Source: an uncultured Gammaproteobacteria bacterium (GTDB lineage: Bacteria; Patescibacteriota; Patescibacteriia; Magasanikbacterales; GWA2-37-8). From it: 64,000 nucleotides of DNA. Positions 13,834-16,880 of this stretch are shown here, piece after piece. The stretch spans positions 163,850 to 227,849 of the forward strand of contig CAYZGX010000001.1 in NCBI GenBank assembly GCA_964478235.1. Direction: 5' to 3'. The translations under genes were made by a program, and so were the position numbers. The notes below the pieces were generated by a model. The model made no database searches. It saw only the letters and a list, made by a program, of their open reading frames with translations, and had not been told where the DNA came from. Within the stretch, counting starts at the first letter, position 1. Every line of letters starts with the position of its first letter.

Positions 13834-14031
13834 ATGACCGTTCCATTCAAAGAATACCGCTGTACCACCTGCCACAAATTATTGTTCAAAGGCTGGCTGG
13901 TAGAAAGCGCTATCGAAATTAAATGCAAAGGCTGTCACGAAATGAACACCATTGAAGCTAGCAGTGCCGACGCTTTCATGTGTGGCATTCTCCCCTGCCC
14001 TAATCGCATACCAGTCAAACCAAAAAAATAA
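13834..14031 (+). CDS. Small Com-like zinc-ribbon protein (CxxC...CxxC)
   Basis: 65 aa. YRCTTCHKLLFKGWLVESAIEIKCKGCHEMNTIE resembles the Mu Com family (RCxxCxKLLfk...IEIKCxxC). It has its own extended -10 promoter (TGcTATACT at 13765-13773) and a downstream hairpin (14050-14085). Confidence 0.45.
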   Translation: MTVPFKEYRCTTCHKLLFKGWLVESAIEIKCKGCHEMNTIEASSADAFMCGILPCPNRIPVKPKK

Positions 14032-14106
14032 CACCTGAAGCTCAAACACGAAGCTCACCCACAAGGGTGAGCTTTATTTTTAAAAAACATTCAACACCAC
14101 ACCACT

Positions 14107-15942
14107 ATGTCGCACGACAAAAAAACAATGGTCGACGTTAGCCAAACAATTGACGAGTATCTTGATAAAAGCGATTGGCGGGTCAACGCCAACTCCAACC
14201 AAGGATTTTCACTTGGCGGGATGATCCTCAATATGGCTGGCAAAGTGACGGCCAACTACTGGCTGTCTCACGTCTATCCAAGCGAAGTCGGCGAAGCTCA
14301 TCGGAGTGGCGACATCCATATTCATGACCTTGATATGTTTTCTGGCTACTGTGCTGGCTGGAGCTTGCGCGCCCTCCTCGAGCAAGGCTTTAACGGTGTA
14401 CCAGACAAAATTGAATCAGGTCCGCCAAAACATCTTTCATCGGCCATCGCTCAAATGATTAATTTCTTGGGTACTCTCCAAAACGAATGGGCTGGAGCTC
14501 AAGCCTTCTCTAGTTTTGATACCTTCCTCTCACCATTTGTAAAAAAATATGAGCTAGAGTTGCGTGATACTATCAAAAAATATGGCATGCAATTTGAAAA
14601 TGAAGAAACCAAAGAAAAATATATTGCGAACGATGTCTATCAATACGTCTACCAAAACATGCAGTCATTTGTCTTTAACCTCAACATTCCTTCACGCTGG
14701 GGAACACAAACGCCGTTTACCAACATCACACTTGATTGGGATTGCCCCGCCGACCTCAAAGAAAAACGCCTCGTATTAGCCGGTAAGCCTTATGACTATA
14801 CCTACGGCGAACTCGAGCCGCAAATGGACATTATTAACCGAGCTTTTATTGAGGTGATGAGCAAAGGTGACGCTAAAGGACGAACCTTCACCTTCCCTAT
14901 TCCGACCTACAATATTGGTAAAGATTTTAAATGGGACGACCCAAAAAACCTCGCTCTCTTTGAAATGACTGCCAAATACGGCACCCCGTATTTCCAAAAT
15001 TTCATCAATTCAGAGCTAAACCCCGGAGATGTTCGCTCTATGTGCTGTCGTTTACAACTCGATCTCAAAGAACTGCGTAAACGTGGCGGCGGGCTTTTTG
15101 GCTCGGCTGAAATGACCGGATCAATTGGGGTGGTCACCATCAACGCCGCTCGCATCGGCTACACCAACCGTGGAAACAAAGAGGGTTTTTACAACCAAAT
15201 AAATCATCTCATGGAGCTGGCCAAAACCTCCCTCGAGATGAAACGAGTCGTTGTTCAAAAATGGATTGACGCCGGGCTCTTCCCCTTCACCAAACGCTAT
15301 CTCGGCTACCTCAAAAACCATTTCTCAACTATCGGCATCAACGGGTTAAACGAGGCTATTCGTAATTTCTCGAACGACACTGAAAATATTACTACTCCAA
15401 ACGGTCAAAAATTTGCCGAAGACGTATTGGTATTCATGCGTACTAAACTTCAAGATTTCCAAACCGAAACACGCAATCTCTATAACCTAGAAGCCACCCC
15501 GGCCGAAGGCGCCACCTACCGCTTTGCCAAAGAAGACCAAAAGAGGTTCCCTGATATTTTTCAAGCTGGCACCTACGAAGCACCCTACTACACCAACTCT
15601 TCACAAATCCCGGTCGGTTTCACCGACGATGTCTTTGAAGCGCTTCTACTCCAAGACAAACTCCAAACAAAGTACACTGGCGGGACAGTGCTCCACTGTT
15701 ATATGAGTGAAAAAATCAGCAGTCCCGAAGCTTGTCGAAATCTAGTGAGAAAAATCTTAAACAATTTCCGCCTACCCTATATCACTATCACCCCGACATT
15801 CTCCATTTGTCCAAAGCACGGCTATTTAACCGGAGAATACGACTTTTGCCCGCGCTGCGACGCCGAAAACGGACTACAACCTGGTGTTCACTTTGATACC
15901 ACCATGCGTAATAAACACCGCAGTCTTATCCCTCAATTATAA
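14107..15942 (+). CDS. nrdD: Anaerobic ribonucleoside-triphosphate reductase NrdD (class III RNR), catalytic body and zinc ribbon; ORF terminates before the glycyl-radical motif
   Basis: 611 aa. Class III RNR core (CCRL, finger-loop cysteines) and a C-terminal zinc ribbon ICPKHG...FCPRC. The ORF stops 27 aa later without the RVxGY glycyl-radical motif. Confidence 0.9.
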   Translation: MSHDKKTMVDVSQTIDEYLDKSDWRVNANSNQGFSLGGMILNMAGKVTANYWLSHVYPSEVGEAHRSGDIHIHDLDMFSGYCAGWSLRALLEQGFNGVPDKIESGPPKHLSSAIAQMINFLGTLQNEWAGAQAFSSFDTFLSPFVKKYELELRDTIKKYGMQFENEETKEKYIANDVYQYVYQNMQSFVFNLNIPSRWGTQTPFTNITLDWDCPADLKEKRLVLAGKPYDYTYGELEPQMDIINRAFIEVMSKGDAKGRTFTFPIPTYNIGKDFKWDDPKNLALFEMTAKYGTPYFQNFINSELNPGDVRSMCCRLQLDLKELRKRGGGLFGSAEMTGSIGVVTINAARIGYTNRGNKEGFYNQINHLMELAKTSLEMKRVVVQKWIDAGLFPFTKRYLGYLKNHFSTIGINGLNEAIRNFSNDTENITTPNGQKFAEDVLVFMRTKLQDFQTETRNLYNLEATPAEGATYRFAKEDQKRFPDIFQAGTYEAPYYTNSSQIPVGFTDDVFEALLLQDKLQTKYTGGTVLHCYMSEKISSPEACRNLVRKILNNFRLPYITITPTFSICPKHGYLTGEYDFCPRCDAENGLQPGVHFDTTMRNKHRSLIPQL

Positions 15943-15965
15943 CTTACTTACCAACTAAATAATCT

Positions 15966-16169
15966 ATGGAAAACACTACTACACCAACCAGAACTCGTTG
16001 CGAAATTTGGACTCGTGTTATGGGTTATCATCGACCGCTATCACATTTTAATATCGGAAAAAAATCAGAGCACATCTCACGCAAGCACTTTACCGAATGC
16101 GTTTCAGCCAATAGTATTTTTATCAAAAAATACGCTCACCTTGGCCAACCACTCTACACTACTCGCTAA
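15966..16169 (+). CDS. nrdD: NrdD C-terminal glycyl-radical domain encoded as a separate 67-aa ORF in another frame (gene fragment or split gene)
   Basis: TRTRCEIWTRVMGYHRPLSHFNIGKKSEHISRKHF carries the class III RNR glycyl radical signature (RVxGY...NxGKxxE...R). It lies in frame 0 whereas the nrdD body is in frame 1. Confidence 0.6.
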   Translation: MENTTTPTRTRCEIWTRVMGYHRPLSHFNIGKKSEHISRKHFTECVSANSIFIKKYAHLGQPLYTTR

Positions 16170-16175
16170 GCTACT

Positions 16176-16880
16176 ATGCTTATTTCTGGCATACAACCTT
16201 TTACCTTGCTCGATTACCCTGGAAAAACCGCGTGCGTTGTCTTTTTGCCAGGTTGTAATTTTAGATGTGGCTACTGCCACAACAAGGAGTTTGTTTTACC
16301 AGAAAAAATAAAAGAGCTTCAAGGAAACTTTATCGATGAAGAGGTGGTCTACAATTTTCTCATCAACCGTCGCGATTTACTTGATGGCGTAGTTATTTCC
16401 GGAGGCGAGCCAACTATGATGCCTGACCTCATTCCCTTCATGCAAAAAATAAGACGACTAGGCTTTTCGGTGAAACTAGACACCAACGGCAACCGACCAG
16501 ATGTCATCACCAAAGCACTCGAGCTTCGTACCGTTGACTATATTGCCATGGATCTTAAGACCGACCTCCCCACCTATACCGCACTTGTAGGAAACGGCGC
16601 CAAAAAAGATGCGCTCGAACAAAGTATTAGCATTCTCCTCAACAGTCCGATTGACTACGAGTTCCGCTCCACCATTATCAAAGAAGTTCACTCAGACGCT
16701 ATTCTTGAAAGGATGGCTCAAGCTATCGCTGGAGCTAAACACTGGTATTTACAAAATTTCAGACCAGAAAACACTCTAGCTCCACACTTTGCCAACTACC
16801 ACCCTTTTGAAGAAGTAGAACTCAAAAAAATAGCTGAATATCTCAGCCCCTACGTACACAAACTAACTATTCGCTCATAA
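16176..16880 (+). CDS. nrdG: Anaerobic ribonucleotide reductase activating protein (radical SAM)
   Basis: N-terminal LLDYPGKTACVVFLPGCNFRCGYCHN carries the CxxxCxxC radical-SAM cluster motif typical of NrdG. Confidence 0.9.
   Translation: MLISGIQPFTLLDYPGKTACVVFLPGCNFRCGYCHNKEFVLPEKIKELQGNFIDEEVVYNFLINRRDLLDGVVISGGEPTMMPDLIPFMQKIRRLGFSVKLDTNGNRPDVITKALELRTVDYIAMDLKTDLPTYTALVGNGAKKDALEQSISILLNSPIDYEFRSTIIKEVHSDAILERMAQAIAGAKHWYLQNFRPENTLAPHFANYHPFEEVELKKIAEYLSPYVHKLTIRS

Follow-up and report, generated by a model that had tools for sequence, protein, structure and literature searches.

According to textbook teaching, the radical glycine of a glycyl-radical enzyme is part of the enzyme's single chain, GrcA being the only exception. 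In a 2026 review, the formate lyases were the only class of these enzymes with stand-alone glycyl-radical proteins, and small subunits were given only for HPAD, BSS and MASS (PMC13450708). Among the ribonucleotide reductases (RNRs), split enzymes were described solely for class II, both in reviews and by Crona et al. 2015, who showed that both pieces, NrdJa and NrdJb, are required (PMC4520616). The DNA analysed here is a stretch of 64,000 nucleotides of contig CAYZGX010000001.1 (positions 163,850 to 227,849; hereafter the window), deposited under an uncultured Gammaproteobacteria bacterium and placed by GTDB in the Patescibacteriota. It contains a class III RNR locus in which nrdD is divided into a large open reading frame (ORF1) without a glycyl-radical motif and a small one (ORF2) with it, followed by the activase gene nrdG. 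This intact operon, nrdD-large / nrdD-small / nrdG, very probably encodes an obligate two-polypeptide class III ribonucleotide reductase. In the open-access literature that was searched, neither a divided NrdD nor a free-standing glycyl-radical protein of the NrdD type was found described, and an earlier mention elsewhere is possible. The window holds one member of a widespread, apparently undescribed family, whose small ORF is already annotated in databases.

All parts of the locus lie on the forward strand. The large-subunit gene (ORF1, 14107..15942) encodes 611 amino acids (aa) comprising the catalytic alpha/beta barrel and a zinc ribbon; its translation ends in FCPRCDAENGLQPGVHFDTTMRNKHRSLIPQL before the stop codon, and no glycyl-radical motif is present on it. 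The finger-loop motif MCCR, read from the translation (aa 312-315; 15040..15051), is the site of the catalytic thiyl-radical cysteine, and the four zinc-ribbon ligands C568, H571, C581 and C584 (CPKH...CPRC; 15808..15858) are all on the large subunit. The last 23 codons (GLQPGVHFDTTMRNKHRSLIPQL) and the TAA stop (15871..15942) form a C-terminal tail of conserved coding sequence with no homology to fused NrdD. An intergenic spacer of 23 nt (15943..15965) follows, within which a TAA at 15960-15962 closes the frame of ORF2. The small-subunit gene (ORF2, 15966..16169) encodes 67 aa in a frame that differs from that of ORF1. It bears the glycyl-radical loop, contained in RTRCEIWTRVMGYHRPLSHFNIGKKSEH (RVMGY...NIGKKSE), and its conserved core reads RTRCEIWTRVMGYHRPLSHFNIGKKSEHISRKHFTECxxAN..F...Y. 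Gly20 of RVMGY (codon 16023..16025), an invariant column in the small-protein alignment, is the predicted radical-bearing glycine. The radical S-adenosylmethionine (radical-SAM) activase gene nrdG (16176..16880) matched NCBIfam TIGR02495 (NrdG2) with 185.9 bits against a cut-off of 131. An earlier, sequence-only reading of this DNA had given the coordinates and translations of ORF1, ORF2 and nrdG correctly throughout.

Profile searches showed that the two ORFs together make up one NrdD. Of the 562 positions of the Pfam family NRDD (PF13597), 2-531 were matched by ORF1 aa 29-588 (E=5.9e-174) and 532-562 by ORF2 aa 11-42; the break is clean, the two pieces abutting at 531/532. ORF1 scored 986 bits with NCBIfam NF006126 (cut-off 548) and 463.7 bits with TIGR02487 (cut-off 326), and the NCBIfam NrdD equivalogs were likewise divided between ORF1 and ORF2. 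Residues 101-609 of Thermotoga maritima NrdD (4COI) aligned with ORF1 up to CPVCG of the zinc ribbon, which is the last part of ORF1 covered by both the NRDD profile and the PDB alignment. The Pfam and NCBIfam matches of ORF2 were NrdD models only, with no homology to the pyruvate formate-lyase C-terminus (Gly_radical domain), and both pieces matched class III models only, not class II. A PDB search with the small-subunit profile produced no match, probably because this profile is too short and the solved NrdDs are too distant. The MCCR finger loop was invariant in 11 aligned pairs of large and small proteins; C568, H571, C581 and C584 were invariant among split pairs, aligned with the T. maritima ribbon, and are predicted metal ligands. 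The double-cysteine finger-loop motif was defined in PMC9669993, where the MCCR type is linked to thioredoxin-type reduction. Ten large ORFs of the window (515-942 aa) were scanned for a further RNR, and none was found.

Isolate genomes and more than 10 assemblies made independently (JGI, ENA and Logan) had the same structure. An identical ORF2 protein occurred on 11 contigs from different JGI and Logan samples, and an identical ORF1 protein on JGI and ENA contigs; several of these contigs were only ~87% identical to the window at the DNA level, with the architecture unchanged. Compared with relatives, the ORF1 tail had 12 synonymous codon changes and 1 non-synonymous (differences by codon position 1/1/13), ORF2 had 24-28 synonymous and 0 non-synonymous changes, and the spacer between them (22-23 nt in relatives) diverged freely. 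This purifying selection in the tail and in ORF2 indicates that both frames are translated and constrained, and with them most of a 104-nt segment (15871..15974) that the sequence-only reading had taken for an insert bounded by direct repeats of the hexamer GAAAAC. Both copies of the hexamer were confirmed by position (15865-15870 and 15969-15974), and deleting 15871..15974 does join the two frames. The claim of a bounded insert itself had to be given up, as the repeat was at chance level and not conserved in relatives. Shuffled sequence would give 65 copies of GAAAAC in the window, where 36 were counted; any stretch of 330 nt should contain ~13 repeated hexamer pairs (C(325,2)/4096); and relatives of 87% identity carried GAAAAT/GAAAAT or GAAAAC/GAAAAT at the two sites. 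With a chance-level repeat, the 104-nt segment is not a discrete element; it consists of 69 nt of conserved coding tail, the stop codon, the 23-nt spacer and codons 1-3 of ORF2. A mobile insertion with target-site duplication was also rejected, the repeat being unconserved and inverted repeats being absent.

The split arrangement was found far outside the immediate relatives of the window. ORF2 as query gave 341 homologues, and the best 120 of the 341 were all stand-alone proteins of 53-82 aa; those among these 120 with a named source came from Magasanikbacteria, Uhrbacteria and other Patescibacteria. The core of the small protein was nearly invariant and its N-terminal leader, including 'MEN', was variable. 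A Pseudomonas small ORF as query gave 4087 clusters at 90% identity, the best 120 of them all 49-90 aa long. A scan of GTDB species genomes returned 80 loci, 76 of which could be classified as split or fused; the split form was present in 72 of the 76 and the fused form in 4, all of them Actinobacteria. In 71 of 78 related loci, nrdG followed the small ORF directly. Isolates with the split form were Pseudomonas proteolytica DSM 15321, P. cedrina, P. lactucae, P. petroselini, Halomonas socia NY-011 (complete genome), several Billgrantia, Thiocapsa, Alloalcanivorax and Nitrincola, and carriers among metagenome-assembled genomes (MAGs) belonged to Elusimicrobiota, Thermoflexus, Terrimicrobiaceae and Holosporaceae. 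RefSeq small ORFs of 51-55 aa (e.g. WP_003174546.1), named 'anaerobic ribonucleoside-triphosphate reductase' or 'oxidoreductase', were found in the P. fluorescens, P. chlororaphis and P. corrugata groups and in Stutzerimonas stutzeri. On the large-subunit side, at least 65 of the 150 closest representatives at 50% identity ended 0-44 aa past the CxxC of the ribbon, with the glycine motif absent. Pseudomonas large subunits without the radical domain were 666-675 aa long, a range that the 675 aa of the nrdD product of P. aeruginosa PAO1 (PA1920) would fit. The split recurs far beyond chance and is genuine and ancient.

A rough neighbour-joining tree of the barrel regions, which is not robust, placed the window in a large, all-split clade of Patescibacteria and Proteobacteria, with other split lineages further out and mixed among fused ones. 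The fused actinobacterial NrdDs (L067, L073, L086 and L088, from Streptomyces, Occultella, Bifidobacteriaceae and Cellulomonadaceae) were nested inside the split clade in this tree, which suggests secondary re-fusion. Several MAGs titled 'uncultured Bdellovibrionales' or 'Gammaproteobacteria' (among loci L012-L040) had nrdD genes that clustered tightly with the Patescibacteria type; their loci had no Shine-Dalgarno sites, and the taxonomic labels look unreliable.

Further variation was noted among the large subunits. Many close representatives were 1000-1900 aa long with 3-6 separately matched stretches each, which points to several inteins per gene in candidate-phyla bacteria; the nrdD copy of the window has none. 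Another C-terminal variant without a glycyl-radical domain was seen in P0142, P0159, P0161, P0194 and P0202, in which the zinc ribbon is without a second CxxC and the end has the form ...HEFCPYPHTEE(D/E)LERFG... The 611-aa large subunit of the window is without an ATP-cone-like N-terminal extension of ~90 aa (MPIYKIQKRNGxIVDF...) that was present in nearly all related large subunits of ~700 aa (14107..14400 compared with L012-L091), and the window enzyme may for this reason lack ATP/dATP on/off regulation.

Across the split loci, the small ORF was in the same frame as the large one in ~28% of cases, near the 1/3 that chance would give, and the distance from the stop codon to the ATG ranged from 8 to 960 nt. 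Small ORFs of Proteobacteria had an AAGGAG-type Shine-Dalgarno site 6-9 nt before the ATG. Opposite-strand genes for a PIN toxin and a MazE antitoxin were located between the large and small nrdD genes of L038 (2520..3479), and a 23S_rRNA_IVP family gene between the two pieces in L061 (3041..3434). In the window, the frame of ORF2 is shut by a TAA two codons 5' of its ATG. A search of 15400..16600 against Rfam yielded nothing at E<=1, and neither promoter- nor terminator-like sites were found between ORF1, ORF2 and nrdG. A group I or II intron was rejected since the gap is too short and there was no Rfam match, stop-codon readthrough since ORF2 is in a different frame, and a frameshift since the ORF2 frame is closed by the TAA at 15960. 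The varying frames and gaps, the Shine-Dalgarno sites and the intervening genes together led to the rejection of recoding. The sequence-only reading had listed, among its three options, a genuinely split enzyme whose radical domain is either made as a separate polypeptide or reached by recoding; on this evidence the separate polypeptide is strongly supported and the recoding half falls away.

The alternatives to two separate, functional genes were weighed against these data. Ribosomal bypass of ~104 nt (AAC to AAC), or a frameshift, would yield a normal single-chain NrdD. In its favour, the same Glu-Asn codons (GAA AAC) precede both the presumed take-off point and the presumed landing point, and the length of the gap is not divisible by three, but the take-off codon is followed by GGA and not by a stop, and the stretch that would be skipped evolves as coding sequence, as its 12 synonymous changes to 1 non-synonymous show. 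The geometry is not conserved in relatives either: the N-terminus of the small ORF, 'MEN' included, is variable in the family, frames are random, gaps run from 8 to 960 nt with opposite-strand genes in some of them, and proteobacterial relatives have a Shine-Dalgarno site and an ATG. As the TAA two codons ahead of the ATG also closes the ORF2 frame, bypass or frameshift was judged highly improbable. The locus on its own does resemble a frame-disrupted gene, and a small insertion or duplication that turned the large ORF into a decaying pseudogene and left nrdG an orphan had been another option of the sequence-only reading. It retains very little credibility, given that the same break point is found in thousands of lineages across phyla, that the catalytic and zinc-binding residues are invariant, that selection is strongly purifying with nearly all changes synonymous, and that nrdG is conserved as part of the operon. 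The remaining option, an error of assembly or consensus at a short repeat, has the 6-nt repeat in its favour and nothing else, and a repeat of 6 nt is unable to misassemble 104 nt. The same structure was seen across samples and pipelines (JGI, ENA, Logan), in finished isolate genomes and in RefSeq proteins such as WP_003174546.1, and related, independently assembled genomes had the same architecture; the probability of an artefact is negligible. Recurrence, spread, varied frames and gaps, own Shine-Dalgarno sites and intervening genes are taken to exclude artefact, pseudogene and recoding alike.

Two further explanations would accept both ORFs and assign them other roles. The ORF1 tail and the ORF2 N-terminus might be split-intein halves that ligate the two proteins, and the large-subunit relatives are indeed intein-rich (representatives of 1000-1900 aa with several matched stretches). 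Natural split inteins, however, are far longer than the tail (23 aa here, 0-50 aa in relatives) and than the leader, which varies and has 5-25 aa; the tail does not start with Cys or Ser, and L035 has no tail at all, ending in CDDEN at its stop codon. Ligation by a split intein is accordingly given almost no chance. Patescibacterial genomes are small, and this small size speaks against the other explanation, namely that the small protein is a GrcA-like spare for a single-chain NrdD encoded elsewhere and that the truncated large ORF has another role or none. Stand-alone glycyl-radical proteins such as GrcA/YfiD and T4 Y06I can rescue a damaged enzyme (PMC13450708), and just 64 kb of the genome is in view. 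Against a spare part stand the position of the small ORF, directly between a large ORF without radical domain and nrdG in nearly all loci, the exact abutment of the two pieces in the NRDD profile, and the finding of no second RNR among the 10 scanned large ORFs of the window. The adjacent partner is without a radical domain of its own in the window and in 72 of 76 related loci, and since the partner has no radical glycine, the small protein would be an obligate subunit and not a spare. The spare-part explanation is therefore improbable.

An AlphaFold2 model was built with ORF1 joined to ORF2 as one chain, from an unpaired alignment that included fused homologues. The mean predicted local distance difference test score (pLDDT) was 89.2 and the predicted template modelling (TM) score (pTM) 0.91, with a pLDDT above 90 for the radical-domain core; the tail and the leader (pLDDT 46-62) and the C-terminal helix of the small subunit (~66) were of low confidence. 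The best structural matches were Prevotella copri NrdD (8P2S_B, TM-scores 0.74/0.77), T. maritima NrdD and T4 NrdD, and the fold agreed with 8P2S and 4U3E. According to this model, a canonical class III reductase fold can be formed from the two pieces. Two motifs were specific to the split form, CPxCDxE at the end of the ribbon on the large chain and R[TQ]RCE at the start of the core on the small chain, and the fused actinobacterial forms had neither the acidic nor the basic pair of these motifs; to judge from the sequences, the two motifs may form an electrostatic clasp in place of the covalent link. A related large-subunit tail motif, ELG[IL]xGERYDxxYRxxYxS, was found in other Patescibacteria. 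A long large-subunit tail and a long C-terminal extension of the small subunit did not strictly occur together (exceptions L035, L044 and L061), and the two are not taken to be paired. In single-chain NrdD, the whole glycyl-radical domain is highly mobile and is disordered in the inhibited state (PMC11226230), and this mobility makes a detachable version plausible.

The two-polypeptide enzyme favoured here is supported by two conserved coding sequences, by translation signals in relatives, by the cross-phylum arrangement and by the compatibility of the fold. Several points weigh against it. Both polypeptides are known here from sequence and predicted structure alone. The structure model was made from a concatenated chain with fused homologues in the alignment, so that it shows compatibility of the fold and not binding of the chains, and within it confidence was low for the 23-aa large-subunit tail and for the C-terminal extension on the small subunit. 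No Shine-Dalgarno site was found before ORF2 in the window or before the small ORFs of other Patescibacteria. Lastly, the view is limited to 64 kb of the genome, and a second, single-chain RNR may be encoded elsewhere.

For an enzyme of two polypeptides, the following course may be proposed. The genes nrdD-large, nrdD-small and nrdG would be co-transcribed, and the small subunit would be translated from its own ATG, in Patescibacteria possibly by termination-reinitiation. The catalytic barrel, the finger-loop cysteines and the complete zinc ribbon would come from the large subunit, and a beta-hairpin with Gly20 from the small subunit, which would dock where the C-terminus of a single-chain NrdD normally sits; assembly is expected to be non-covalent, perhaps helped by the motifs CPxCDxE and R[TQ]RCE. 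The small subunit, whether free or docked, would lose a hydrogen from its Gly20 to NrdG. Transfer of the radical from the hairpin to the finger-loop cysteine is established chemistry of the class III RNR family, and the docked hairpin would pass its radical to that cysteine in the same way. The site at which oxygen cuts glycyl-radical proteins is the glycine; a possible, speculative benefit of the split is that oxygen damage would cost only a replaceable subunit of ~7 kDa, a built-in parallel to GrcA. A broader reading can be put forward tentatively, with the doubts somewhat outweighing the confidence: a large clade of class III RNRs might be obligate heteromers with an exchangeable radical subunit of 50-80 aa that is activated off-enzyme by NrdG and replaced after oxygen damage. 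This putative clade would take in Patescibacteria, many Gamma- and Betaproteobacteria (cultured Pseudomonas, Stutzerimonas and Halomonas) and members of Elusimicrobiota, Chloroflexota and Verrucomicrobiota.

Just 5' of nrdD, a 65-aa zinc-ribbon ORF (13834..14031, forward strand) matched Pfam Zn_ribbon_Com with E=2.6e-07 and was also present in the 87%-identical relatives L001-L006. A strong terminator-like hairpin (14050..14075; 11 pairs and a T-run) lies between this ORF and the start of nrdD. The upstream ORF could be a small regulator or attenuator.

Members of the very large family to which this locus belongs occur across phyla and have the radical cofactor of an essential enzyme on a separate small protein. 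The small ORF is at present labelled 'hypothetical protein', 'oxidoreductase' or, misleadingly, 'anaerobic ribonucleoside-triphosphate reductase'. If the two-polypeptide enzyme is real, the ~600-700-aa 'NrdD' of these lineages would be incomplete alone and the ORF of 50-80 aa essential to the enzyme, and the small ORF would belong in expression, knock-out and metabolic-reconstruction work on Pseudomonas, Halomonas and candidate-phyla bacteria. It would also be a natural, peptide-sized substrate of NrdG, allowing a direct test of how the activase gains access to a normally buried glycine, and it could explain tolerance of class III RNRs to oxygen damage in facultative and micro-oxic bacteria.

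In comparison with known systems, the locus shares with the single-chain NrdD/NrdG of T4, E. coli, T. maritima and Prevotella copri the barrel, the MCCR-type finger loop, the zinc ribbon, the RVxGY...NxGKxxE loop and an adjacent radical-SAM activase. It differs from them in that the radical loop is on a separate polypeptide of 50-80 aa and the large chain has a lineage-specific tail. With the split class II NrdJa/NrdJb of P. aeruginosa and other Proteobacteria (PMC4520616), it has in common two adjacent genes of one operon and a fixed cut near the C-terminus; NrdJa/NrdJb is, however, cobalamin-dependent, and NrdJb bears a redox cysteine pair and a zinc finger, not a radical cofactor. GrcA/YfiD and T4 Y06I are, like the small subunit, small stand-alone proteins with a glycyl-radical loop that are activated by the cognate activase and are able to fill the barrel of a larger partner protein. 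GrcA has its homology in the pyruvate formate-lyase C-terminus, not in NrdD, and backs up an enzyme with a radical domain of its own, so that the analogy to GrcA/YfiD drawn in the sequence-only reading was useful and at the same time incomplete, the partner here having no such glycine. The beta and gamma subunits of BSS, the gamma subunit of HPAD and the beta, gamma and delta subunits of MASS are also small polypeptides bound to a glycyl-radical catalytic subunit, but they are iron proteins resembling HiPIP or rubredoxin, and the radical glycine is never found on them (PMC13450708). The phage RNRs in pieces (Aeh1 nrdA split by mobE, and some phage nrdD; PMC3653736) resemble the locus in their consecutive ORFs and in that an active enzyme is still possible. 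Their breaks are recent and lineage-specific and come from introns, inteins or homing endonucleases (Dwivedi et al. 2013, PMC3653736), whereas the break described here is ancient, is located at one fixed site across cellular phyla and is normally without a mobile element.

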